Positions 1,678 to 34,726 of a stretch of 34,726 nucleotides of DNA are shown here, piece after piece (the first letter of the stretch is position 1; every line of letters begins with the position of its first letter). The notes under the pieces are model-generated. The model was not told where the DNA came from. It saw nothing but the letters and a program-made list of their open reading frames with translations, and searched no databases. Both the position numbers and the translations under genes were made by a program. The stretch comes from a virus, in IMG/VR virus record IMGVR_UViG_3300045988_054439; one strand, 5' to 3'.

Positions 1678-2955
1678 TTATTTCCTCATATTTGCTTTTT
1701 TTTTGTAAAATTCAAAGCCATAAACCAATTCTTTTATATAATTTGGGACAATTTTAATTTTAGGACTTTTCAAAAGCTTTTCAAACATTTCCGGTGTCGG
1801 TATTCCAGTTTGACCATCAAGCTGAACGCACAACCAATGAGAGTACATTTGTGTCCCTGTTAATTCTTCAATTTCTTTCGCTTTTATGCCAGTTGATTTT
1901 AGCCATTTCGTAAACTTCAATCTATCTTGTGGCGAATCGCTCCTTTCAAAGTTCCCAAAAATGACGGGCTCGTAAGAATCAAAAATTTCTTTTGAATCCA
2001 TTATGTCTACAAAACTTTTGCTTCTTAAAAATTTAGAGCTTCCTGCGTTTTGATAAATAGCTTTGAAACATCCAGCGGTTCCAGACTTTTCCATCATTTC
2101 GGTTGCTTCAACTTTTTCTCCGTTGTATATGTGTTCAAGATTATATTTATTTATCTTAAAGCCTTCTACGCCCTCACATCCGCAGCAAGTCATACTGTCG
2201 CCCATTGTTCGCAACCTATTTTCGGCGCACATAAAAGTAAGACCCAAGCTGTGGCATTTTTGCTTTATCGCTTCATAATCTTTTACAAGAATATGCTTCG
2301 GATATACAAAATCTCCTCCGACTTTAATAAGCCCGGGTTTAGGCTTTACAAACTTCATGTTTTCAATCGTAATTCCATAAATTCCGATTTTTGCATATTC
2401 GTCAAGACTTTGCATTACCTCTTCAAAGACTTCGGTCATATACGGCTGAATGCGGACAACAACCCTTTTACAATTACCAACAAGTTTTCTAAGCATTTCA
2501 AGTCTTTCGGAATATTTCGGGGCACCTTTTTCCAAAACATCATATTTTGAACAAACCATTGAAACCTGAACAACTGCATTGCATTGCCTCAAAAGGCTCA
2601 AGTAATCATCTTCGCAAATAAGTTTTCCCTTTGTGCTTACTATAAACGGATATTTTGTTTCTGCAAAAATCTTTAATGCTTCATAACTTATTCTATGGAC
2701 TTTTTCGCAGGGCTGAAATGGGTCACTCATTCCGCCCCAGTGCAACGGAATGCCCCAATCGCACCACTTTGTAACTTCGCTTCTCTTGCCGTTTATAAAA
2801 TCTTTTAATTGCTTCAAGCAGTTATCTTTTTCAATTTTTGTTATATCGCTTTTCCTTTGAACAAAACAATATTTGCAGGCATGCGAACATCCTTTATATG
2901 TATCAATTCTGACAGGGCAATCGCACAAAACAATTTGAGAACCACAAGCAATCAT
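1678..2955 (-). CDS. Radical-SAM protein of the SPL / 'DNA repair photolyase' (COG1533)-like type, with a C-terminal HTH-like extension
   Basis: CxxxCxxC cluster motif GCSHACKYC near the N-terminus. Motif order (WGGMSDPFQP, IVSTKG, VQVSM, RIQPYM) resembles SplB-like enzymes. The C-terminal ~90 aa read IKAKEIEELTGTQMYSHWL...GIPTPEMFEKLL. GC is about 33-35% in hand-counted lines, against more than 50% in the flanks. Confidence 0.7.
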   Translation of the reverse strand: MIACGSQIVLCDCPVRIDTYKGCSHACKYCFVQRKSDITKIEKDNCLKQLKDFINGKRSEVTKWCDWGIPLHWGGMSDPFQPCEKVHRISYEALKIFAETKYPFIVSTKGKLICEDDYLSLLRQCNAVVQVSMVCSKYDVLEKGAPKYSERLEMLRKLVGNCKRVVVRIQPYMTEVFEEVMQSLDEYAKIGIYGITIENMKFVKPKPGLIKVGGDFVYPKHILVKDYEAIKQKCHSLGLTFMCAENRLRTMGDSMTCCGCEGVEGFKINKYNLEHIYNGEKVEATEMMEKSGTAGCFKAIYQNAGSSKFLRSKSFVDIMDSKEIFDSYEPVIFGNFERSDSPQDRLKFTKWLKSTGIKAKEIEELTGTQMYSHWLCVQLDGQTGIPTPEMFEKLLKSPKIKIVPNYIKELVYGFEFYKKKANMRK

Positions 2956-2956
2956 T

Positions 2957-3526
2957 TTATAATACTCCCATGATCTTCAACAACTCTTTGCTATAAAACT
3001 CTTTTGTCATTTCTTTTATCTTGCCCTTAACGGCGTCCTCATATTGTTTCGGAAAACAAAAAGAAATTGAAAATTCTTCTCTTTGAAGTTTATTGTTGTT
3101 TGTCATACAGTTTTCGTCTTCAAGAAGTTCATCAATATAACTCAATTGTTGACCTTGTTCGTTCACTTCAAAGCCAAAATCAAAATCAAAATCACTAAAA
3201 TCAAGATCTGCAATTTCATCCGCCAGCAGGTCAAAGTCCCAGTCGCTCTCATTGCTCTTGTTATCCACCAACCGCAGGGCGTTCACTTGTTCGGGTGTCA
3301 AGTCGTCAACACAAACGCACGGCACCTCCTTCAGCCCCAGCTTCTTTGCGCCAAGGGCTCGGCAATGACCGATCACAATCACGCCGTCCTTATCTACAAC
3401 GATAGGCTGAACGAAACCATACTGCCGAATACTCTCGGCCACATTGTCAATTTGCGTTTGGTCATGCTTTTTAGCGTTCTTCTCATACGGCTTGATTGTA
3501 TCAAGCGCTCGCATTTCAACCTTCAT
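2957..3526 (-). CDS. ParB/Srx N-terminal-domain protein with an acidic linker
   Basis: Start chosen at MKVEMRAL (SD AGGAGG upstream). Carries ParB-N motifs (KPYEKNAKKH, GFVQPIVVD, IGHCRALGAKKLG) followed by DWDFDLLADEIADLDFSDFDFDFGFEV. No ParB HTH or dimerisation domain is recognisable. Confidence 0.75.
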   Translation of the reverse strand: MKVEMRALDTIKPYEKNAKKHDQTQIDNVAESIRQYGFVQPIVVDKDGVIVIGHCRALGAKKLGLKEVPCVCVDDLTPEQVNALRLVDNKSNESDWDFDLLADEIADLDFSDFDFDFGFEVNEQGQQLSYIDELLEDENCMTNNNKLQREEFSISFCFPKQYEDAVKGKIKEMTKEFYSKELLKIMGVL

Positions 3527-3573
3527 CAAAACGCACCTCCTAAATATAATTGTAGCAGAAAAGCCACCAAAAA

Positions 3574-3903
3574 TCAACTTTTTGGCGGCAAATGATAAAA
3601 CGCTCTGTATAATTCCTCCGCTGTGTCCAGGTTCTTGTCAGCGGTGTAGGCTTCCGTGGCGGCGGTGATCCGTTCCTCCAGCGCCAACGATTCTCGGCTT
3701 AAAAATTCCGCTTTCGACCGCAGCAGGGTGCAGTTGTACCGCAGCGCCTCTTTCTGCCGCTTCGCTGTTTCTTTGTCCATCAGCCCAGCACGGAATAGCC
3801 GATATATAGCCAGCAAGCCAATATACTCGGCACTGTCCGCTGCTGTCAGCCCTTTCGGTAAGATTTTGCCATCAGCGGCGGCTTTTTCTAAACTCTTGTC
3901 CAT
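3574..3903 (-). CDS. Hypothetical helical protein; first gene downstream of non-coding module M1
   Basis: 109-aa ORF with SD AAAGGAG before the ATG. No recognisable motif. Confidence 0.6.
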   Translation of the reverse strand: MDKSLEKAAADGKILPKGLTAADSAEYIGLLAIYRLFRAGLMDKETAKRQKEALRYNCTLLRSKAEFLSRESLALEERITAATEAYTADKNLDTAEELYRAFYHLPPKS

Positions 3904-4218
3904 TATCTCGCTCCTTTACGCAAAACAACCTACAATGTAGTAGTTCGTTTGTAGCGACCCATTTTTGGCTCAACCACGCCAAATTTTAGACTTTCGAACC
4001 GCTACAAACTACAAAAACTACGTTTTCTCCTATAAATATATTTCTATTTTTACTTTTTTTCTTATTTTATATTATTCTCTCAAATAATGTAGTGTTTGTA
4101 GTGTTAGTATATAGAATGTGGTTTTTTTGGCTTTGTTGCGCCAAATTTTCGGACTACAAAGTCGCACTACAAAGCCTACTACAACGCTACAAACACCACG
4201 AAGGCGGCAGATTTTTGG
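3904..4218. repeat. Non-coding module M1, paralogous to M2 at 28065-28308. Carries 11 copies of the CTACA(A)/TGTAG motif in conserved order around an AT-rich core.
   Basis: Motif copies at 3930, 3936, 3950, 4002, 4009, 4088, 4097, 4154, 4167, 4179 and 4187. Blocks shared with M2: TGTAGTGTTTGTAGTG, AGTATATA, TTTTTGGCT, GGACTACAAA. There is a ~60-bp core of about 85% A+T and no ORF. Confidence 0.85.
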
Positions 4219-5685
4219 CTAAAATTCGAGGATGTCGTCAAGGTCGATTTGGTCGGAATTGTCCTCGTTCGCCCACCAACGCTGATTTCCATAAACCGGA
4301 AACTTCTTGGGATATGGCTGCTTGACCCACCCGCTCATTGATTGGAGTATGAGCCCGATTTCTTGGCTTTCCTTTTTGGTGGGCTTTGAATATTCGCCCA
4401 TACGCAAAGCCTCCTGCCAAAGTTCAAGCACGCAAATCTCGGTCTTATTTTCCAAATAATCCTCGATCATACCAACACGGAAATCATCTTCTGTTGCTTC
4501 TGCCTGCTCCTTTCGAATGTCATCAATCAGCGACCGGTCAGCATACGGCAGCAGCTTGCCGGCCTTGTACAGTTCCAACGCTTCTGCCCAGCACTGGCGG
4601 ATGTCGGCTTTGATTTGCTTCTCATTGTCAAACAACTCATAACCGCTTTGCTTCACCCGCACCGGATAGAACCGCCGGTTGCCGGTCTTATCCGTCAAAA
4701 ACTGCTCTTTGTTGGTCGTTCCTATGAATATACACTGCCGTGGGTGGTCGGTCACTCGCTTGTCGAACGGCATTCGGTAGCGATCATTTAACCGGGTAAG
4801 GTAGGACTTGACGGCTTCCTGCTCCTTCGTTCGTGTCATTGCAAGTAGTTCCGACACCTCGCAAATCCACGCACCCTCGATTGATTCAATTCCGCGCTGG
4901 CCGTCAAATTCGTTGACCTCTGTAAAATATTCGTCCGCCAAAGCAAGCCAGCGGATCAGCGTTGACTTGCCTTCTCCCTGCTTTGTGCCGATCAGCACCG
5001 GCATATCGTCGAATTTGCAACCTGGATTGTATAGCCGGTGAATACCGCCGGCAAAGATAAGGCGGCTGACTTCTCGGGTGTACGGCGTGTCCTCGCATTT
5101 CGTCCACTTTGCCAAGAAGCCGTAAATTCTCGAAACGCCGTCCCATTCCAATCCGTCCACAATCTCACGCACTGGGTGGTACTCGTGGCGAGCCAGCACA
5201 ATGCGCATAGCGTCCTCGCTTTTCTGCACGCTGTGGAAGCCGTATTTTTTCTCAATATACCGCCGCATTTCTGCGTCGTCAGCGTCCGTCCACCGTTCCG
5301 CCACGCCGTTGACGGTCTTTTCCGGGCTATATGTAAGCAAATTAAACTTTATGCCGGAGAACCTCGGGTCACCCTCGAGCACCTTAACGAAATTGTCTAT
5401 TGACGCCACCGGACGGCCATTTGCGTCAAAGTCCAAGTCAACGCCGCAGCGCAGCTTTGCATTCGTCCGCTTGTACTCTTTTGCAAGGCTCTCGTTTGCC
5501 TTGTTAAACGCTTTTAGAACGCTCTTGAATTCCTGCTGAATGCCGAATTCCTTTGCCTTTATCGCCATCAACGCCGCCAGCCTTGCTTGGTCTTCCGGCC
5601 GTTCCTCACATAAGTCCAGCAGCAGATCGGTGTTCAGCAGCTGCTCCGGCGTCGCAATCACTTGTATCTGTTCATCTGTAAGCAC
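4219..5685 (-). CDS. VirE-family primase-helicase (P-loop NTPase)
   Basis: 488 aa with Walker A in VLIGTKQGEGKSTLIRWLA and a downstream ICEVSEL Walker-B-like motif. The overall pattern matches virulence-associated protein E / D5-type phage replication proteins. Confidence 0.8.
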   Translation of the reverse strand: MLTDEQIQVIATPEQLLNTDLLLDLCEERPEDQARLAALMAIKAKEFGIQQEFKSVLKAFNKANESLAKEYKRTNAKLRCGVDLDFDANGRPVASIDNFVKVLEGDPRFSGIKFNLLTYSPEKTVNGVAERWTDADDAEMRRYIEKKYGFHSVQKSEDAMRIVLARHEYHPVREIVDGLEWDGVSRIYGFLAKWTKCEDTPYTREVSRLIFAGGIHRLYNPGCKFDDMPVLIGTKQGEGKSTLIRWLALADEYFTEVNEFDGQRGIESIEGAWICEVSELLAMTRTKEQEAVKSYLTRLNDRYRMPFDKRVTDHPRQCIFIGTTNKEQFLTDKTGNRRFYPVRVKQSGYELFDNEKQIKADIRQCWAEALELYKAGKLLPYADRSLIDDIRKEQAEATEDDFRVGMIEDYLENKTEICVLELWQEALRMGEYSKPTKKESQEIGLILQSMSGWVKQPYPKKFPVYGNQRWWANEDNSDQIDLDDILEF

Positions 5686-6232
5686 TTCCTCGCCTCCTCA
5701 AATCGGCCTGTGTTAGCCTTTCATCCGCCAAGCCTATCCGTTGTAGCGCTTCAACGAAAAGCGGGTTTAACGGCTCTGTGGCGGCCTGTGGGCGGTATTT
5801 GCGCAGCTGGTAGTCCAGCCTTGCCCACTCGTCGAACGCCGCCCAGTAGTCCCGCTCCAACCGCTCTTGCATTGCTTTTTCGGCCTTGCGTTTCTCTTTG
5901 CGCTCCCTGGTGGCCTGCTCCATTCTTCGCTGTTCTCTGACGGAAATTCGCTGACCAATCGGCAAGCCAAGCGCAAAATCATTATTCAATTTCTCGCACG
6001 CTTTCCAAAAAGAAAGTCCAAAATATTCTTGCACGAATGTCAAAATGTCGCCGTTCTCTCCGCACGCAAAACAGTGGTAGCCATTGCTTCCGGAATAGAC
6101 TTGCATTGACGGCGTGTTGTCGTTGTGAAAAGGGCAGACAGCACGCCCTTTCCTGTCAATATGAATGCCGTATGCTTCCAGCACCTCCGCCGTGTCCAGC
6201 CGTTCCTTGATTTCTGTTGCATAATCAATCAT
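5672..6232 (-). CDS. CHC2 (DnaG-type) zinc-finger protein, primase-associated
   Basis: CPFHNDNTPSMQVY...YHCFACGENGDILTFV is a CHC2 zinc finger. Start taken at MIDYATEIK (ATGATTGA overlap with the upstream stop). The C-terminal half is a basic coiled coil. Confidence 0.75.
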   Translation of the reverse strand: MIDYATEIKERLDTAEVLEAYGIHIDRKGRAVCPFHNDNTPSMQVYSGSNGYHCFACGENGDILTFVQEYFGLSFWKACEKLNNDFALGLPIGQRISVREQRRMEQATRERKEKRKAEKAMQERLERDYWAAFDEWARLDYQLRKYRPQAATEPLNPLFVEALQRIGLADERLTQADLRRRGSAYR

Positions 6233-6437
6233 CTGCTTGCACCAAAATATACTTGCCATCACTGTTGCGGTACGGCTTATCGCCATATTCTCCGGACAAC
6301 ATCTTTTTAATGCTCGACATACATCTTGTCTTAAACTGGTTGCCTAATGTTGGAAGAAATTCCGGACAAGTTTCGCATTCTTGAGTTCTGCAAAACTCGC
6401 TTTCTGTCATCGCCCGCAGCTTGATACGCTTTTTCAT
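6225..6437 (-). CDS. Hypothetical small Cys-containing protein
   Basis: 70-aa ORF, translationally coupled to its neighbours. Confidence 0.5.
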   Translation of the reverse strand: MKKRIKLRAMTESEFCRTQECETCPEFLPTLGNQFKTRCMSSIKKMLSGEYGDKPYRNSDGKYILVQADD

Positions 6438-11608: not shown

Positions 11609-11902
11609 TCATATTCCGTCCCAGAGTCCGCCGCCTTTGTCATTGACTAGCAACACCCGGCAGCATTTGTTTACCAGCTTGTCGGCGATCTCAACCACGC
11701 CGTCGGCTGTGCAGCTGTTTTTTTTTATTGCTTTGGCAATATACGCCAACGCTCCGGTGTTGAAACCATCACGGTTTAGCAATCCAACTATTTTGCAAAG
11801 GTTGTCAATCTGCTCACTGTTACAATCCGTCAGCCAGCTGTTGTCGGCTATTTCTTTTTTCAAAAGATCAACCATTAAAATCCGGTGTTCTTTTAGTGCC
11901 AT
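11609..11902 (-). CDS. Hypothetical protein
   Basis: 97-aa ORF with SD GGAGGA upstream. Confidence 0.5.
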   Translation of the reverse strand: MALKEHRILMVDLLKKEIADNSWLTDCNSEQIDNLCKIVGLLNRDGFNTGALAYIAKAIKKNSCTADGVVEIADKLVNKCCRVLLVNDKGGGLWDGI

Positions 11903-12497: not shown

Positions 12498-12905
12498 ATG
12501 TATAACACATTCAACGGCTATATGCAGGGCGTGCAGCCCTATGGGAACCCATACGCTGACAGGCTGGCAGCAATGCAGCAGAACCAAGCAATGCAACAGC
12601 GTTGTGATGTAGTCACTGTCAATGGCGAGAACGGAGCGCAGGCATACCCGCTGGCACCTAACAGCAGCGCCTTACTGCTGGACGAAAGTCAGCCGCTTGT
12701 GTGGCTTGTCAAGACCGACGGCGCAGGATATAAGACGGTGTCTGCGTTCAACATCACTCCACACGAACAGACGCAACAGCCGACCAACGCAGACCTTGAA
12801 CAGCGCATAGCAAGACTGGAGGAGATCATCAATGCGCAACCCGATACTGGACGCAATGCAAAAACAAAGCAGCGGGCAGCAGCCGCAGAACCTGCCGGCA
12901 AATAA
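12498..12905 (+). CDS. Hypothetical Gln-rich protein (cassette P1)
   Basis: 135 aa with SD GGAGGG. The Q/N-rich N-terminus is followed by a beta-rich core. The 3' 74 nt overlap P2 in another frame. Confidence 0.55.
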   Translation: MYNTFNGYMQGVQPYGNPYADRLAAMQQNQAMQQRCDVVTVNGENGAQAYPLAPNSSALLLDESQPLVWLVKTDGAGYKTVSAFNITPHEQTQQPTNADLEQRIARLEEIINAQPDTGRNAKTKQRAAAAEPAGK

Positions 12906-13068
12906 CGGCGGGAATTTCTTGCAGCAGCTGGCGGAATTCCGTAAAGCCCTTGGCGGGAAAGACCCGCAAGCGATCGTACAGAATTTGCTAAACACCGGGC
13001 AGATGAGCCAACAGCAGTTTCAGCAGTTGAAAGCCCAAGCCGAGCAAATCCAATCAATGTTAAAATGA
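12832..13068 (+). CDS. Hypothetical Gln-rich helical protein (cassette P2)
   Basis: 78 aa with strong SD GGAGGAG 7 nt before the ATG. Confidence 0.55.
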   Translation: MRNPILDAMQKQSSGQQPQNLPANNGGNFLQQLAEFRKALGGKDPQAIVQNLLNTGQMSQQQFQQLKAQAEQIQSMLK

Positions 13069-13119
13069 GGCGGTGCACAGCCCATTTTATAAAAATCTAA
13101 CGAAAGGACAAAAAGCGAA

Positions 13120-13695
13120 ATGGATAACTATTCACTTTCCGACCTGCGGGCAGCCGTAGGTGATGACAACGGCGCATTTGGCGGCAACGGCGCTTGGTGG
13201 GTGATCCTGCTCTTCCTGTTTTGGGGCTTCAATGGCAACGGCTGGAACCGCCAGGGCGAGTTTGGCCAGTACGCAACCGCTGCCAGCCAGCAGGAAATCC
13301 TGTTCGGCCAGCAGTTCGGCCAGCTGAACGACCGGCTGAACACTATCGGCAATGGTATCTGTGACAGCACCTTTGCTTTGAACAACAGCATTTTGACCGA
13401 GGGTCGAGCAATCCAAGGCCAGCTGGCAGACTGCTGCTGCAAGAACCAGCTTGCGACGGCCAATCTGTCTGCGCAGATGAACCAGAACGCTTGCGACATC
13501 ACAACGGCGATTCACGCAGAGGGCGAAGCCACCCGGCAGCTGATTCAGAAGAACGAGATCCAGGCACTGCGGGACAAGGTGACAAGCCTTGAAATGGACA
13601 GCCGTTTCTGCGGCGTCGTTCGCTATCCGATGAGTTACGCATACAATGCGGGCCCGTCTCCGTTCTGCGGCTGTAACAGCTGCTGCAACATCTAA
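13120..13695 (+). CDS. Membrane-anchored Cys-rich protein (cassette P3)
   Basis: A Gly/Trp-rich transmembrane (TM) segment (NGAWWVILLFLFWGFNGNGW), Q/N-rich helical repeats, a CCC triplet, and C-terminal FCGCNSCCNI. Confidence 0.6.
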   Translation: MDNYSLSDLRAAVGDDNGAFGGNGAWWVILLFLFWGFNGNGWNRQGEFGQYATAASQQEILFGQQFGQLNDRLNTIGNGICDSTFALNNSILTEGRAIQGQLADCCCKNQLATANLSAQMNQNACDITTAIHAEGEATRQLIQKNEIQALRDKVTSLEMDSRFCGVVRYPMSYAYNAGPSPFCGCNSCCNI

Positions 13696-13780
13696 ACACA
13701 CGCCACCACGGCGAGGATTTCAACCGGCGGGGGCGGCAACAGCTGCTCCCGCTAATCTTTTACGAAAGGAAAAACTAAAA

Positions 13781-14182
13781 ATGTCAAAATCTGCAATTTA
13801 TACCACCAATACCACCGCACCCACCATCACGGCAGGCAATGTCATCCCGGTAGGCGTGACAAGCCGCCGGTTCGGCTGCAATATCCGCCAGGACGGCAAT
13901 ACAATCACGCTTTGCGGAAGCGGATATTACAAAGTGACAGCCGTGGCCACCGTTACGCCTCCTGCTGCTGGCACTGTTTCTTTGACAGCCCAAAAGGACG
14001 GCGTTGCCGTGATCGGCGCAACATCCAGTGCCACCACAGCCGCCGTAAATGAAACCGTTACGCTGACAGTGAGCGCCATTCTCCGCAATGCCTGCGGCTG
14101 CGACAGTTCGATCCTGTCCTTTGTGCTGGGCGGCGCAACTGCCGTTGTCAACAACCTGTCCGTGACGGTCGAGAAACTGTAA
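13781..14182 (+). CDS. BclA C-terminal-domain / C1q-like beta-jellyroll protein (cassette P4), without collagen repeats
   Basis: Start at MSKSAIY (SD AAAGGA). The pattern GYYKVTAVATV...LTAQKDGVAVIG...LSVTVEKL parallels the BclA CTD, recognised from memory. Confidence 0.45.
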   Translation: MSKSAIYTTNTTAPTITAGNVIPVGVTSRRFGCNIRQDGNTITLCGSGYYKVTAVATVTPPAAGTVSLTAQKDGVAVIGATSSATTAAVNETVTLTVSAILRNACGCDSSILSFVLGGATAVVNNLSVTVEKL

Positions 14183-14194
14183 AGGCGGCCGACT

Positions 14195-14755
14195 ATGACT
14201 TCAAGCGAAATTTTTGGGCGCATAAATGCCCACCAAATCGAGGGAATAATGCTGCATAGCCAGCTGGCTGAATATTTCGGCTTTTTGAATTTGTGTGGCT
14301 ATCAACGCCAGCAAGAATGCCAGGCAATGTCCGAATTTTACGAACACCAAAAAACTGCCCTGTATTTTGTCTCACGCTTTAACCATTTGCTGCCGGAAAC
14401 GGCCGCCAAAGACCCGGAGATCATTCCGGACGCTTGGCGCGGCTACACCCGCCAACAGGTTGACGCCGGAACAAAACGCAAGGCTGTCCGTGACGCATTT
14501 TTGCGGTGGAAATCCTGGGAAACCGAAACCAAGAAGCTGTACGAACAGGCATACGCAGACCTGCACGAACTTGGCGAGATTGCAGCAGCTTGCGAAGTCA
14601 AAAAACTTGTTGAGTCGGTAGCTTGCGAGTTGGAGCGTGTCGAAAGTCAGCGCATAACCTTGGAGTGCTTGGACTATGACCTTGCGGCGATCTGCTCCGA
14701 GCAAGACAGATTGCTCGCAAGATATTCTCTGAATTACGGAGTTGTGACAGCCTAA
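14195..14755 (+). CDS. Ferritin-like four-helix-bundle protein (cassette P5), tentative
   Basis: QIEG...ECQAMSEFYEHQK (E...ExxH) and WETE...ELERVE resemble di-iron ligand spacing. 186 aa. Confidence 0.35.
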   Translation: MTSSEIFGRINAHQIEGIMLHSQLAEYFGFLNLCGYQRQQECQAMSEFYEHQKTALYFVSRFNHLLPETAAKDPEIIPDAWRGYTRQQVDAGTKRKAVRDAFLRWKSWETETKKLYEQAYADLHELGEIAAACEVKKLVESVACELERVESQRITLECLDYDLAAICSEQDRLLARYSLNYGVVTA

Positions 14756-14760
14756 AAGAA

Positions 14761-14787
14761 AAGGGCGGAGCCTTTCGCTCTGCCCTT
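14761..14787. terminator. Bidirectional intrinsic terminator between convergent units
   Basis: AAGGGCGGAGC-CTTTC-GCTCTGCCCTT forms an 11-bp stem with one G-U pair. A/T runs lie on both sides. Confidence 0.75.
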
Positions 14788-14791
14788 ATTC

Positions 14792-14926
14792 TCAATATTC
14801 CCGCTGCACATTGACCAGCTTGCCGTGCTTGGCTTCTGCGTGTTGTAATTCGACTTTATCGAACCCAGCGCACCAGCAACGGTACCCGTCAGCGAAAGTG
14901 TACACGAACACAACCTCTTTGTTCAT
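14792..14926 (-). CDS. Hypothetical 44-aa protein; last gene of early operon 1
   Basis: Start at MNKEVV (SD GGGGGTGA). Confidence 0.4.
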   Translation of the reverse strand: MNKEVVFVYTFADGYRCWCAGFDKVELQHAEAKHGKLVNVQREY

Positions 14927-14957
14927 TTTATCACCCCCAATACGAAAGGAAAAAGCT

Positions 14958-15293
14958 ATGATTTCTTTGGATATACTCAATCAAGATATACTCGATTTGG
15001 AGCGCAACCACGACACGACTTGGGCGACGGTTGAACGCCTTGCCTGGCTATATATCGTCCGTGACCACCTTGCCGGCGGCGCCAGCAAGTCCACCAAGCC
15101 TGTGAGCACTGACGGCTCAAGCGACTTCTTGGCCGCCGCTGACGGCCTGGACACCTGCCAGGTGCTCGACCTTATGGACGAACTAATGGACACGCTCCAG
15201 GTGATCTCTCCAGCACTTTATCACTCCGCAATGCTCCGGCTGGACGCATTGGAGCCGTCCTCGTCCTTGCCGAGTGAGCAAGCGAGCAAATAG
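14958..15293 (+). CDS. Hypothetical 111-aa protein embedded antisense in early operon 1
   Basis: SD AAAGGA 8 nt before ATG 14958. The composition is protein-like (MISLDILNQDILDLERNHDTTWATVERLAWLYIVRDHL), whereas the minus-strand frames here are S/R-rich. Confidence 0.5.
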   Translation: MISLDILNQDILDLERNHDTTWATVERLAWLYIVRDHLAGGASKSTKPVSTDGSSDFLAAADGLDTCQVLDLMDELMDTLQVISPALYHSAMLRLDALEPSSSLPSEQASK

Positions 15294-17031: not shown

Positions 17032-17196
17032 TCAAATGTGGCGCAAGATCTTCTTTTCGCACTTGTACACGATGTTCTGTGCGTGTCGAACAGAAATGTC
17101 AAACTCCTCCGCCAGCGGCTCAAAACAAACACCATCAAGCCACCTGCGCTTGAATATCCGGCGGTGTTGCTCGTTGAAAATGTACTGCTCTATCAA
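17032..17196 (-). CDS. Small sigma-70-region-4-like HTH protein, putative late-gene regulator. The TTG-initiated remnant is annotated; the upstream ATG 17244 is cut off by an in-frame TAA.
   Basis: IFKRRWLDGVCFEPLAEEFDISVRHAQNIVYKCEKKIL resembles a sigma region 4 HTH. SD plus ATG at 17244 give MRADDVADLSR, then TAA (17211-17209), then the same frame continues QWEHL(TTG)IEQY. Confidence 0.5.
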   Translation of the reverse strand: MIEQYIFNEQHRRIFKRRWLDGVCFEPLAEEFDISVRHAQNIVYKCEKKILRHI

Positions 17197-27680: not shown

Positions 27681-28064
27681 TTAATTTTTCGTTAGATATT
27701 CGGCGGTGACATTGATTATCTTCCGCCGGATTTGGTCATCGTCCGGGTCGGACATATTCTGTGCAAACGGCGTTCCCCGCTTTAGCCATATATAGCCATC
27801 AGCGGCGGGAATAACCAACCCATCAAAGCCCAGTGTCTCGCTTATCTTTTCAGCCATCGCATTGCACGGCTTCCAGGTCGTTCCCCTGTACCACAGCGAA
27901 ACGGAAATGCTGGTGTCGCCGCTTCCGTCAGCGTGGAAACTGTCCGTCACAAGCGCATAAGTTAGATACGGCAGCGCTGCTCCCTGCGGCACTGTTGTTT
28001 CCTCATACGCCGGCAGAAAGCGCTCAAAAAACGCTTGCACTGCTGCCGCTTTGGTCTGCGCCAT
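27681..28064 (-). CDS. Tail terminator / tail completion protein (DUF3168-like)
   Basis: 127 aa, directly upstream of the major tail protein. Confidence 0.55.
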   Translation of the reverse strand: MAQTKAAAVQAFFERFLPAYEETTVPQGAALPYLTYALVTDSFHADGSGDTSISVSLWYRGTTWKPCNAMAEKISETLGFDGLVIPAADGYIWLKRGTPFAQNMSDPDDDQIRRKIINVTAEYLTKN

Positions 28065-28308
28065 TTGCTTTGCCCTCCCTTTGAACCTACTACAAAACTA
28101 CAAAAACTACAACAAAACAAGGTTCTGTATTTAATATATTTCAATATATTAACCACTCTTTATATTACTCTCTAAAACTTTGTAGTGTTTGTAGTGAGTA
28201 TATAATAAGTACCTTGTTTTTGGCTTAACGGCGCCGTTTTTTGTGGACTACAAAATGCCACTACAACGCCGTCTACAAGTCTACATTCTCGCCCGCTGAC
28301 GGCTTATT
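28065..28308. repeat. Non-coding module M2, paralogous to M1. Carries 9 CTACA(A)/TGTAG motifs in the same order and orientation around an AT-rich core.
   Basis: Motif copies at 28090, 28098, 28107, 28181, 28190, 28248, 28261, 28273 and 28281. Shares the blocks TGTAGTGTTTGTAGTG, AGTATATA, TTTTTGGCT and GGACTACAAA with M1. Confidence 0.85.
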
Positions 28309-32061: not shown

Positions 32062-33633
32062 TTATTCCGCGTTTTTTTCTTTTATTTTCTTGGTGATCTT
32101 GTCAAGCAGCGCCTGCAACTCCTCATCTGTCAAGGCGTCCAAGTCGTCATCCTGCCCGCTTCCGGTTGGCTCATTGCCTTGCTGGCCAACATCCTGCTCC
32201 GCCTGCTGCCCTGCCGGTTCTGCTCCATCAAGGGTGGGGTCGTCGTCAACCTCGATCCTGTCGCCCTCTTCGTCCCTCTTTCTCTTGATGATCTCATCCG
32301 CCTGGTCGCCGATACCCAGCAAGAAGCAGACCTGCTCGGTGATCGTTTCATTGTCCAAATACTCGGCAGCGGAAAGAACCATCTGCATTTCTTCGGATTG
32401 ATTTACAATCTTTGACCGCTTGAAACTGACATTGTCTGTAATTTCAGCAAGCTGCAAAATCTTTTCAACAAAGTTCGTCACGCAATACTCGAACATATCC
32501 GTCTTGCTGTCAAGAGGTTGATACGCCGCCCGGATTTCTGTGGCAGTTTTTGAGTTGGCCGAAATGTCGAGAACATTCAAGCACATAAAGTCCTCATACA
32601 GTCGCGCTTTGATTGTGGCTATCGCAGCGTCGGACGCGCTGATCGGCGCTTCCACTGTGTGGGCTTCAACCTGCGCGCCGTCGTCGTCGATGTGCGCAAC
32701 ATGCATTGTGCGCAGCCGCTCCAAGAACCGCTGGTCGTCCTCATCGTCCATTCCGCCAGCGTTTGTGATTGCCCAGTAAATCATGTTGCCCTCGTCGACA
32801 TTGTTTACGAGGTTGCTATTGATAAGGTCAAATGCGTCAAGCGTGCCCTGGCGTCCAACCAACTCCGACTGCTTCTTGTCGTTTCCATAAAGCGGAATGA
32901 TTGGAAATTCCGGGTAGTTTTCAAAGTCGTAAATCTCGGTTCCGTCAGCGATAGAGTGACGCACCTTCATCTTGTAAGCGGTCTTCGGCTGGATAATCAA
33001 GATCTTTTCGTTTGTACCCGTCGGGCTTAGGTATTCCGTGTAGCCGTCCACTTCATACAGTGTTGCCCGCAGCGGTTTATCATCTGCAAGTTGCCAAAAC
33101 CGAATGCCAGCCCGCAGCGCTCCGCTCTCCTCATCAAACAGCGGGACAAACTCCGTCACATCGAACACATCCAGGTGGTCAAGGTTCCAAAAGCCAAAAG
33201 CAACGCCACCAATCAAAGCAGACTTGCCGATCTTCTGCAATTGGTAGTCGAAGTCATAAGAACCGCCGTGCAGTTCGCCCTGTCCGCCGCCCAGCTTTTC
33301 CTTTGTCTTTTTGTCGCCGAAGATTGCACCGTTGCCAAGCAGGTACTGATTCTCCTGCGTGATTGCGAAGTTGAAAAAGTTGCTTGTGATCTTGTGATTT
33401 GGTGCCCATCTGTCAACATGAGCGTCACCCCACAAGTCATAGATCAACTTCTCGTAGTGCATTATTGTTGGGTTCAGTCCACGATAATACTCCCACGCCC
33501 GGCAAGCAGTCCGATAAAGCTGCCCGGCCTTGTGCTGGCGGATAGCCGAAAGGACAAACGCCTGCCGTTTGCCCTCAAATGCTCCGCACGCTTCAAGGTC
33601 TTGATAAGTCAAGTAAGTAGAAATTGTAACCAC
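32062..33633 (-). CDS. Portal protein (SPP1 gp6-like)
   Basis: 523 aa, between terL and the MuF-like gene, with an acidic C-terminal tail. The start (GTG 33633) is uncertain. Confidence 0.85.
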   Translation of the reverse strand: MVTISTYLTYQDLEACGAFEGKRQAFVLSAIRQHKAGQLYRTACRAWEYYRGLNPTIMHYEKLIYDLWGDAHVDRWAPNHKITSNFFNFAITQENQYLLGNGAIFGDKKTKEKLGGGQGELHGGSYDFDYQLQKIGKSALIGGVAFGFWNLDHLDVFDVTEFVPLFDEESGALRAGIRFWQLADDKPLRATLYEVDGYTEYLSPTGTNEKILIIQPKTAYKMKVRHSIADGTEIYDFENYPEFPIIPLYGNDKKQSELVGRQGTLDAFDLINSNLVNNVDEGNMIYWAITNAGGMDDEDDQRFLERLRTMHVAHIDDDGAQVEAHTVEAPISASDAAIATIKARLYEDFMCLNVLDISANSKTATEIRAAYQPLDSKTDMFEYCVTNFVEKILQLAEITDNVSFKRSKIVNQSEEMQMVLSAAEYLDNETITEQVCFLLGIGDQADEIIKRKRDEEGDRIEVDDDPTLDGAEPAGQQAEQDVGQQGNEPTGSGQDDDLDALTDEELQALLDKITKKIKEKNAE

Positions 33634-33648
33634 CCTTTCATCGTGTTG

Positions 33649-33888
33649 TTATTTGGCCACGCTCAAAATAAGCGGACTTTCTTTTTTGCCGATTTTTTTG
33701 CGTAAAATCGTATTCACAAAATATCGAATATCATCCATGCAGTTATGAACGATCAAGCCGCCGTTAACGGAAAAGTTGTGCGTGCCGATCACTTCCATGT
33801 TATACACGTCTTCATTTTGCACACTCTCGATTTTTAGCACCTTTACAAGATTGGCAGAACTTCGTTTTTTGGTACTTGTTCGCGACAT
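33649..33888 (-). CDS. terL: Terminase large subunit, C-terminal fragment: the split-intein C-half (49 aa) plus a 30-aa C-extein
   Basis: SD GGAGGGG and ATG 33888. Reads ...VYNMEVIGTHNFSVNGGLIVHN (Asn codon 33744-33742), then Cys+1 (33741-33739) and CMDDIRYFVNT. This completes the TerL nuclease motif ENDH-x-MDDxRY. Confidence 0.8.
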   Translation of the reverse strand: MSRTSTKKRSSANLVKVLKIESVQNEDVYNMEVIGTHNFSVNGGLIVHNCMDDIRYFVNTILRKKIGKKESPLILSVAK

Positions 33889-34444
33889 ATTCCCCTCCAC
33901 ACCTTTCACAGATTTTTGTCACATTGTCAAAGCCCATCTTCCTGCGATATGCAGATTTGCATTTGTTTGAGCAAAAGCGGTTTTTGTTCTCGCCATACGT
34001 TGCCTTTGTCTCAAATTCTTTTCCGCAGAAGGTGCAACGATAAGACTTCAAGGGCATATTTTTGAAAGTTTCGATTGCGTGTTGCGAGTGCCATTTTTTG
34101 CCCTCTTCGCTGCCATGCCATTTAGACGCTTTTGGTCTCGCATTTTTTGCGAGGTTTTCCCTCGCCCACTCTCGTCTTTCCTCGCTCCACGAACTGCCAT
34201 GCAAGTTAGAATGTTCTTTCGCTGTCATCAGCACAAGGTTTTCGATTTCGTTGTTGTTCTTATCAAAATTCTTGTGGTGAACGTTGTACCCCTTTGGGAC
34301 TTCTGAGCCGTTGTAATACTCCCACACATAAACGTGAAGCCGTTTGTGTGTTTTCGCATTCAAAAAATATCCGGTTTTCTTATCTCTGCGGAACGACAAG
34401 CCGTCAAAGCAAGCGAGATCGCCGTCGTCAACATATTGAACCAT
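33812..34444 (-). CDS. Free-standing HNH homing endonuclease (HNH_3 type) with tandem C-terminal zinc-finger repeats
   Basis: SD GGAGGA (34457-34452) and ATG 34444. HNH motif VHHKNFDKNNNEIENLVLMTAKEHSNLH. Two CxxCG...FCxxxCK repeats. Confidence 0.85.
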   Translation of the reverse strand: MVQYVDDGDLACFDGLSFRRDKKTGYFLNAKTHKRLHVYVWEYYNGSEVPKGYNVHHKNFDKNNNEIENLVLMTAKEHSNLHGSSWSEERREWARENLAKNARPKASKWHGSEEGKKWHSQHAIETFKNMPLKSYRCTFCGKEFETKATYGENKNRFCSNKCKSAYRRKMGFDNVTKICERCGGEYVANKYQKTKFCQSCKGAKNRECAK

Positions 34445-34489
34445 AGTTACATCCTCCGTGAATATTAATCTACAAATATTGTAGCGCAT

Positions 34490-34627
34490 TTAGTCCATAA
34501 TGTCAACGATTTTGCTTGATTGCGTTAGATATTTTGCCTTTACCCATCCTTTGTCGGTCAAAACTTTGTGATCTTCGGTGCATTTAATAACCTTGCCGTT
34601 TTCAAGCGTTATTTTCAAAATCGGTTG
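34490..34627 (-). CDS. terL: Continuation of the terL N-fragment: the last 45 residues of the split-intein N-half, plus the stop
   Basis: In phase with base 1 across the junction. Reads ...NQPILKITLENGKVIKCTEDHKVLTDKGWVKAKYL...IVDIMD then TAA (34492-34490). TEDH is intein block B. Confidence 0.8.
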   Translation of the reverse strand, partial: QPILKITLENGKVIKCTEDHKVLTDKGWVKAKYLTQSSKIVDIMD

Positions 34628-34726
34628 ATTTTTTTTTGTTCTTCTCACACCAAAAAACGGTCTTATACATTTCTTTTTCCGCTTCTCGTTGTAACTCCAA
34701 ACAAGACCGATTTTTCCAACAAGGTC
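34628..34726. repeat. Second copy of the 99-bp terminal repeat (identical to 1-99)
   Basis: Exact identity to the window start. Confidence 0.95.

Follow-up and report, generated by a model that had tools for sequence, protein, structure and literature searches.

What do the two largest non-coding regions of a phage genome do when both are built from the same short repeats? We addressed this question for the IMG/VR virus record IMGVR_UViG_3300045988_054439, which was analysed over its whole length of 34,726 nucleotides (hereafter the window). The first region, M1 (3904-4218), begins at the stop codon of a helicase gene, and the second, M2 (28065-28308), lies at the junction of the head and tail genes; both are read on the minus strand, as are all features described below unless stated otherwise. 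An initial annotation, made from the sequence, had offered two readings of these regions, namely late promoter or activator arrays and iteron-containing replication origins. The comparisons reported here argue for origins. M1 is probably a replication origin of the 'pri-rep-ori' type of the Staphylococcus aureus pathogenicity islands (SaPIs), and M2 a copy of the origin core, most likely a second origin bound by Rep. With such an assignment, the two largest non-coding regions of this uncultured gut phage would gain a concrete function and a protein partner that can be tested. The kind of system, a SaPI-type Rep/ori, is known; the unusual part is a conserved second origin copy in the late operon.

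Two paralogous repeat modules

The hexamer TTGTAG is found 35 times in the window, compared with 12.5 ± 3.7 expected copies, and none of 100 shuffled sequences reached this number. The extended motif TTGTAGT is present in 16 copies (2.6 expected). Of the TTGTAG copies, 17 fall in M1 or M2, and clusters of the core TGTAG were found at 3.8-4.3 kb and 28.0-28.4 kb of the window only. Counted by this core, M1 contains 11 repeats, seven direct and four inverted, and M2 contains nine, seven direct and two inverted, exactly the numbers given in the initial annotation. A motif scan and an alignment of the two modules (74% mean column identity) also bore out the common architecture that it had described. 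Thus, M1 and M2 are paralogous modules. In both, four direct repeats are followed by a GC inverted repeat with an A-run, an inverted pair of repeats, CACTACAAACACTACA, an A+T core of 64-68 bp and finally two to three direct repeats. A further motif, AGCCAAAAA, occurs four times, always inside a module or at a module edge.

In M1, the left iterons are four direct copies of TTGTAG (4154-4192) spaced by 8, 12 and 13 bp. They are followed by the inverted repeat TTTGGC-N8-GCCAAA with its A-run (4126-4145) and by the inner iteron pair CACTACAAACACTACA, which is inverted and has a 9-bp spacing (4088-4103). The A+T-rich core (4024-4087), a putative DNA-unwinding element, ends in TATAGGAGAAAAC and reaches 90% A+T in its richest 50 bp. 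Across this core the inner pair is faced by the right iterons CGTAG, TTGTAG and TTGTAG, all direct (4002-4023). M2 has the same order: the left iterons, ATGTAG and three copies of TTGTAG (28248-28286), are again spaced by 8, 12 and 13 bp, and the inverted repeat GGC-N8-GCC, then AAAAA (28222-28235), the inner inverted pair CACTACAAACACTACA (28181-28196) and the A+T-rich core (28113-28180; 84% A+T in the richest 50 bp) follow. The right iterons of M2, three direct copies of TTGTAG spaced by 9 and 8 bp (28090-28112), stand directly before the ribosome-binding site of the gene at 27681-28064. Beyond the common order, M1 has a second GC inverted repeat and three to four further repeats. This third part (3930-3983) consists of another TTTGGC-N8-GCCAAA (3964-3983) and the distal iterons CTACAA, CTACTACA and TTGTAG (3930-3955). 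The (T)TGGC-N8-GCCA(A) inverted repeat with an A-run is therefore present three times in the window (4126-4145, 3964-3983 and 28222-28235). An intrinsic terminator was predicted inside neither M1 nor M2 on either strand, and the GC inverted repeat was consequently rejected as a terminator.

To assess conservation in close relatives, IMG/VR was scanned for a 16-mer, which yielded about two dozen genomes of 30-35 kb. An M1-type and an M2-type module were found in each of them. Distinct sequences, that of the window included, were aligned (15 for M1 and 10 for M2). In M1, only 2 of 55 columns within the TGTAG/CTACA cores vary, compared with 83 of 286 columns outside (p = 1e-5), and in M2 the corresponding numbers are 1 of 45 and 70 of 221 (p = 5e-6). 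This depletion of variable columns shows that the repeats of both modules are under purifying selection whereas the spacers drift. The left iterons of M1 are nearly invariant among its 15 sequences and the spacers between them variable; likewise, the stem of the inverted repeat at 4126-4145 is conserved and its loop variable. Long CTACAA arrays that were also recovered by the 16-mer scan (L002, L007, L019, L034, L079, L082, L093 and L106) are unrelated, being repeats that code for Cys-Ser.

Inverted copies of one motif might act in RNA rather than in DNA, through UUGUAG/CUACAA pairing or as sites for RNA-binding proteins in late mRNA leaders, and thereby serve attenuation, antitermination or translational control. 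Both modules indeed fold better than shuffled sequences (z = -3.5 and -4.3), and when read by eye the inner CACUACAAACACUAC pairs at 12 of 13 positions with the downstream GUAGUUUUUGUAG. However, inverted repeats by themselves produce a low folding energy, and the folds predicted for the two modules differ, involving the left repeats and the inner pair in M1 and the inner pair and the right repeats in M2. Covariation is not available as evidence because the repeats are invariant, and scans of the whole window with Rfam (at gathering thresholds) and for tRNAs gave no match. We therefore regard a role of the repeats in RNA as extremely unlikely.

M1 and the adjacent Rep-type helicase

The gene that ends where M1 begins (4219-5685) encodes a protein of 488 amino acids with a Pfam match to VapE-like_dom (E = 1.3e-63). 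A phmmer search against the PDB returned 7PDS as the sole sequence match among solved structures (E = 1e-46, residues 130-414). This entry is the Rep1-DNA complex of the S. aureus pathogenicity island SaPI1 (PMC9371898). The AlphaFold model of the helicase (mean predicted local distance difference test score, pLDDT, 79.5) was compared with known structures by Foldseek, and the chains of 7PDS took ranks 1-6 (E = 4.5e-25, template modelling score 0.59-0.63). With about 460 aligned columns and targets of 448-457 residues the fold match is essentially full length and hence takes in the C-terminal domain. There, at residues 416-473, the model shows a strand-helix-helix-wing pattern (pLDDT about 74-87), which predicts a C-terminal winged-helix-like domain (residues ~415-475) that would read the iterons. 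The protein is a homologue of the SaPI1 Rep self-loading helicase-initiator, a helicase of superfamily 3 (SF3). Directly upstream of rep lies a gene for a small primase-like protein with a DnaG-type CHC2 zinc ribbon (5672-6286; Pfam Zn_ribbon_DnaG, E = 4.9e-21).

SaPI Rep combines initiator and self-loading helicase in one protein and reads penta- or hexanucleotide iterons through the winged helix of its C-terminal domain (PMC9371898). The SaPI origin comprises 6-12 iterons directly downstream of the rep open reading frame (ORF), with an A+T-rich region about its centre and at least two iterons on each side in opposite directions (PMC9371898). In M1, 11 TGTAG cores are contained within 3930-4192, the first of them 26 nt past the helicase stop codon (4219-4221). 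Two CTACAA copies (4088-4103) and, in the opposite direction, CGTAG and two TTGTAG copies (4002-4023) enclose the 64-bp A+T core, and M2 is arranged alike. The sequence, fold and Pfam matches identify the neighbouring gene product as a self-loading helicase of the VapE-like type, and, as described below, iteron sequence goes with Rep lineage. M1 thus has each sequence feature of a SaPI origin.

To determine what this architecture is linked to, the helicase was followed into more distant genomes. Among 8000 scored candidates, 4055 proteins were homologous at E ≤ 1e-20, and a profile-based scan of IMG/VR provided 80 helicase loci (33-100% identity). For 26 distinct relatives, with helicases 33-77% identical, the 330 bp past the helicase stop codon were compared. 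In these 26 lineages the most frequent 6-mer was present in 6-12 copies (median 8), whereas six copies were reached in only 0.6% of 1235 control windows taken from these loci. The repeat itself differs between lineages, and at least 12 motifs were distinguished (CTACAA, GTAACTA, GTAACCA, GGAATTA, TAACCGA, GTTGACA, TGCAACA, GGGAACA, CGGCAAC, AGTAACA, TTGTAAC, GGTAAC and others). The layout is retained, with three to four direct repeats first, then a spacer containing a GC palindrome, two to three inverted repeats, an A+T stretch that measures about 60-80 bp in most lineages, and a last set of two to three direct repeats. The GC palindrome at this position differs in other helicase lineages from that of the window. 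In the distant cultured phages Javan100 and EMB2, no clean iteron pattern was seen past the helicase gene.

Three contigs with helicases 63-69% identical (L115, L118 and L119) illustrate the linkage. Each has a gap of 290-340 bp past the helicase stop codon, filled with the repeat TTGTAAC, TTGGTAAC or GTTACAC, and each has a primase-like gene upstream of the helicase. The genes downstream of the module are unrelated to one another and to those of the window (Terminase_2/3 in one contig, GP3_package and a T7-type terminase in another, Pyr_excise and Terminase_6 in the third). As the downstream genes differ among relatives, the module is tied to rep and not to the late genes. The third part, a spacer and two more repeats, also follows the helicase gene in these three contigs and in L164. 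The 'extra partial duplication' which the initial annotation had placed at 3930-3990 is therefore present, but it is not an addition peculiar to M1; rather, the third part is ancestral and M2 a shortened copy. Two contigs of a second clade that uses TTGTAG carry about 680 bp between the helicase stop codon and the module (L139, 11470-12150; L152, 4346-5006), so that the linkage is tight, not absolute.

Within the helicase, divergence is faster in the C-terminal domain than in the ATPase core, and the TTGTAG clades carry a QPYPK / G[NS]QRWW signature in their C-terminal domain. Relative to the core, pairs of helicases with the same repeat had a mean C-terminal residual of +8.8, compared with -0.3 for the others (Mann-Whitney p = 2e-4), in a test that is based on 11 same-repeat pairs, which are few and phylogenetically non-independent. 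The initial annotation had recommended a search in related phages for covariation of the repeat with a regulator; here, the repeat covaries with the helicase C-terminal domain. Helicase linkage, lineage-specific repeats and C-terminal covariation together suggest that the module behaves as expected for cognate pairs of initiator and iteron, and not as a late promoter.

Late promoters were the other reading in the initial annotation. In this case, the repeats would be bound by a late activator or alternative sigma factor and would serve the packaging and head operon (M1) and the tail operon (M2). Both modules do head late gene blocks in the direction of transcription, and no canonical sigma-70 promoter was predicted near the late genes. 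Inside M1 and M2 a sigma-70-type -35/-10 pair was predicted on neither strand, in agreement with the initial annotation. A canonical -35 element is lacking, but TATAA(A/T) is found 16-17 bp past the proximal inverted repeat, a geometry typical of activator-dependent promoters. The candidate reader that had been named, a sigma-region-4-like ORF (17032-17196), matched Pfam Sigma70_r4 below the cutoff (E = 0.0044; 16.9 bits, cutoff 24.1), and no activator was identified; neither linkage to late operons nor co-occurrence with an activator or sigma factor was found. Instead, the module follows the helicase gene where the downstream genes are unrelated, and its repeat covaries with the helicase C-terminal domain. 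Moreover, in L141 a separate canonical promoter, TTGACA-17-TATATT, stands directly after the origin module (~11740-11790), and here origin and downstream promoter are separate elements. A promoter at the site of M2 would also be superfluous in most phages with homologous head-closure genes, in which the genes overlap or nearly abut (16 of 18 loci, see below). The proposal that M1 and M2 are late promoters thus lost ground and is improbable, while the origin reading of M1 was strongly supported by the adjacent SaPI Rep homologue and by an architecture that follows the helicase in every distinct relative examined. Two other promoter types were tried and rejected. A Bacteroidetes-type promoter (TTTG / TAnnTTTG) is suggested by TAGTTTTG in M2, but the -33 spacing does not fit, M1 lacks the element and the host signs are of the Firmicutes type. 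For a sigma-54 promoter in TGGCGC-N-AAGC, read by eye, the spacing from GG to GC falls short by one base and there is no TTGC.

A third reading was prompted by the ParB_N protein encoded two genes downstream of M1 (2957-3577), for which the modules could be parS-like centromeres, serving partition of a plasmid-prophage or the organisation of packaging. In P1 parS, short repeats flank a bend site, and no integrase was found in the window; both points would suit such a role. Clusters of the TTGTAG type were also found in two IMG/VR environmental phage fragments, taken as marine (L063, 64-280; L087, 1796-2106), which contain 9-bp tandem repeats TTTGTAG(C/T)G and ACACTACAAACACTACAAG. Downstream of these repeats come a small ORF, a ParB_N (or ParB_N-methyltransferase) gene at about 0.5 kb, a TET-associated glycosyltransferase gene and terminase genes. 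However, in both fragments ParB_N is part of a DNA-modification protein, either fused to a methyltransferase or encoded beside a TAGT glycosyltransferase. Most relatives with a module have no ParB_N gene downstream (it is absent in L115, L118 and L119), no ParA was found, and the repeat tracks the helicase lineage. The arrangement of a ParABS partition site is not seen, and a centromere function is very unlikely.

We therefore favour a SaPI-type origin for M1 and propose the following mechanism. The helicase (4219-5685) would act as both initiator and replicative helicase, and the TTGTAG iterons would be read by its C-terminal winged helix. Assembled as hexamers on the iterons that flank the ~64-bp A+T core, it would melt the core and load itself, and the zinc-ribbon primase-like protein (5672-6286) would supply the primers.

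If this holds, a simple rule would apply to phages with VapE-like (SaPI Rep-type) helicases: the origin can be read from the 300 bp past the helicase stop codon, and its repeat is lineage-specific. Such a rule could be used in origin annotation, in predicting replicon incompatibility and specificity, and in vector design for phage-host systems that cannot be cultured.

An element resembling TATAG(G/A)(G/A)AAAC closes the A+T core 10-15 nt before the right iterons in both modules (4024-4036 and 28113-28128). It is also found in the origins of L115, L118, L147, L164, L166, L179 and L180, whose iterons differ (by eye, in about 8 of 17 lineages), and may be a conserved melting or priming site.

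M2, a second copy among the late genes

M2 is bordered by the head-closure gene upstream and by the tail genes downstream. For comparison, we collected 18 phages whose head-closure genes are 55-66% identical to the gene upstream of M2. In 16 of the 18, the head-closure gene overlaps or nearly abuts the next ORF (gap ≤51 nt), and at none of these 18 loci, from phages with homologous head-closure genes and another replication system, was a module found at the M2 position. The largest gap after a head-closure gene (365 nt, L237) contains small ORFs and no module. Because the homologous genes abut in other phages, M2 is best explained as an inserted copy of the origin.

The insertion is shared by the second TTGTAG clade, whose helicase is 68% and whose major capsid protein is 26% identical to that of the window. 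M2 was located at the same junction in all six second-clade contigs recovered by a pattern scan. The two clades differ in their repeat variants, and each variant is common to M1 and M2: the window clade has CACTACAAACACTACA and the second clade AACTACAAACTCTACAA, with left iterons that are mostly TTTGTAGAG. Whether this agreement arose by gene conversion or by co-evolution with Rep, one and the same protein evidently reads both modules. M2 retains the left iterons, the palindrome, the inner inverted pair, the A+T core and the right iterons, and is without the third part. From these comparisons, M2 is old and maintained, a truncated origin copy (core only) that is limited to the two clades using TTGTAG. 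We propose that the insertion at the head/tail junction took place in the ancestor shared by both clades and that the copy would have been kept functional since.

A precedent for two such loci is provided by phage SPP1. Its oriL, at the replication genes, and oriR, among the virion genes, are ~13 kb apart, each consists of repeats and an A+T-rich unwinding element, and the initiator binds both (PMC6316719). The initiator bound at oriR has been proposed to stall forks and so to bring about the switch to concatemeric replication, together with the phage recombinase, SSB and resolvase (PMC6316719). The window likewise has two loci with putative initiator-site repeats and an A+T element, one of them in a large intergenic region among virion genes, at a distance of ~10.6 kb on the circle. 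Genes for a Sak4-like annealase, an SSB-like protein and an ERCC4-type nuclease are present as well; functions of these kinds have been invoked to explain the switch in SPP1. At the sequence level, the window thus shows the dual-origin layout of oriL and oriR, with a different initiator family: in SPP1 the work is divided among an origin-binding protein (gp38), a loader (gp39) and a DnaB-type helicase (gp40), whereas the presumed initiator of the window is one SF3 helicase. In addition, oriL lies inside gene 38 and M1 is intergenic. By analogy with oriR, M2 is probably a second origin to which Rep binds. The Rep in question would be that of M1, and M2 would most likely act as a second origin; like oriR, it could in addition be a Rep-bound obstacle that aids the change from circle-to-circle to concatemeric replication. 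Conserved as it is in the late operon, the copy would then be well suited to the question why some phages retain two origins that bind the initiator, a question that is decades old for SPP1 oriR.

M2 could, however, bind Rep without firing. It might form a programmed fork barrier, or it might tune initiation as a sink for Rep or by 'handcuffing' M1, much as auxiliary iteron clusters do in iteron plasmids. The third part of the full origin is missing from M2, M2 is absent in other lineages and hence dispensable for this type of replicon, SPP1 offers the precedent of a second 'origin' whose bound initiator is proposed to stall forks, and recombination genes are encoded in the window. Nevertheless, M2 keeps all core elements that define a SaPI origin, including the opposed iterons and the A+T core, and even a degenerate TATAG-like end, ATACAGAACC. 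A pure binding site would not need an A+T core, yet the core is conserved, and a silent M2 is in our view unlikely. At a similarly low level of probability, M2 might couple replication to the late programme, through fork arrest that triggers the concatemer switch or through opening of the A+T core for tail and lysis transcription once Rep has built up. Were this true, a duplicated origin in an SF3-helicase replicon would have given rise to a replication-coupled late switch.

Besides the small number of helicase pairs in the covariation test, several points weigh against M1 and M2 being Rep-dependent origins. Binding, melting and firing by Rep at the two modules and the specific role of M2 are deduced from homology and comparison. 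The primase-like protein has 204 amino acids and was identified by its zinc ribbon alone; no catalytic primase domain was identified. The modules are oriented with transcription, and in relatives TATAA(A/T) keeps its distance past the proximal inverted repeat in spite of small indels; a promoter may accordingly be embedded in the origin or its A+T core. Cumulative GC skew is monotonic across the window and gives no origin signal, as expected where nearly all genes lie on one strand. Finally, helicase lineages that do not use TTGTAG have no second cluster within the 10-kb flanks examined, so that this replicon type does not seem to need a second copy.

Genome context and related replicons

The ends of the window repeat ~100 nt, and this overlap shows that the genome is circularly closed and complete at ~34.6 kb. 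Nearly all genes lie on the minus strand. In the order of transcription, the early region encodes the Sak4-like annealase, the SSB-like protein, the ERCC4-type nuclease, a methyltransferase fragment, a dUTPase, the zinc-ribbon primase-like protein and the VapE-like helicase. M1 follows, between the helicase gene and the packaging and head genes, and thus sits at the boundary of replication and late genes where the initial annotation had placed it. After M1 come the genes for a 109-aa protein, the ParB_N protein, a radical-SAM-like protein, the small and large terminase, portal, scaffold, major capsid and head-tail connector proteins. Downstream of M2, the tail genes are followed by those for tape measure, holin and lysin. 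Family scans of the entire window revealed neither an integrase nor a repressor. Strong Shine-Dalgarno sites precede most genes, and the holin is an SPP1-type one, which suggests that the host is probably an uncultured Firmicute of the gut; contrary to these signs, a near-identical 34-kb contig was binned in a metagenome-assembled genome of the Bacteroidaceae. Megablast of 25 kb against cultured phages gave no match, and the best cultured relative of the helicase is 36% identical at the protein level.

Compared with the SaPI modules (SaPI1, SaPIbov1 and SaPI5), the window has a homologous self-loading SF3/VapE-like helicase with a C-terminal winged-helix-like domain, an origin directly 3' of rep with 5-6-nt iterons (11 here), an A+T centre between opposed iterons, and an iteron sequence specific to the Rep lineage (PMC9371898). 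Unlike a SaPI, which is a satellite island, it represents a complete tailed phage of ~34.6 kb. Its helicase is 23-24% identical to Rep1 in the structural alignment, and a third iteron group is present. It further has a conserved second origin core, at a distance of ~10.6 kb, among the genes of the late operon; to our knowledge, no such copy is known in SaPIs.

Two other groups of replicons are comparable in part. The alpha protein of the satellite phage P4 combines primase, SF3 helicase and a C-terminal origin-binding domain, and its octamer iterons occur in ori and in crr, several kb apart, which resembles the window. Unlike the proteins of the window, alpha is a single fused protein with a different type of primase, and crr is a pair of 120-bp repeats that is required in cis. 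Iteron plasmids such as P1, R6K and RK2 also have direct initiator repeats beside an A+T unwinding element, and extra clusters of iterons can regulate initiation. Their iterons are ~17-22 bp long and are bound by a winged-helix Rep that recruits the host DnaB, whereas the repeats of the window have 5-7 bp and the presumed initiator is itself the helicase.

TGTAG clusters that include the identical 16-mer were also seen in two unrelated elements of the Bacteroidales type (L113, 4520-4900; L105, 5800-6050), of which one is a contig of Ca. Paraprevotella and the other a 38-kb contig in IMG/VR. Each encodes a DnaG-primase-helicase of 1067 amino acids (41% identical to one another), and the cluster follows this gene directly in L113 and one gene further on in L105. 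A binding protein common to these elements and the window was considered and rejected, as neither BLASTP nor hidden Markov model searches with the helicase or its C-terminal domain detected the 1067-aa proteins or their neighbours.

Some further features of the window are of minor interest. The ParB_N-domain protein (2957-3577) is followed by a 425-aa protein of low GC content (36-38%) with a sub-threshold radical-SAM match, before the small terminase; this segment (1678-3577) may be a DNA-modification cassette gained by transfer. The only block of plus-strand ORFs (12498-15293) has a reversed AT skew, and its family matches are confined to a weak BclA_C-like one. The ORF of the large terminase crosses the junction of the circle, running off position 1 and on at the other end (1-1290 and 33600-34726), and is split by a Hint/intein-like insert (CLTGDTVV ... 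VHNC). Inside this insert, in a different frame, lies an ORF for an HNH endonuclease (33812-34489).

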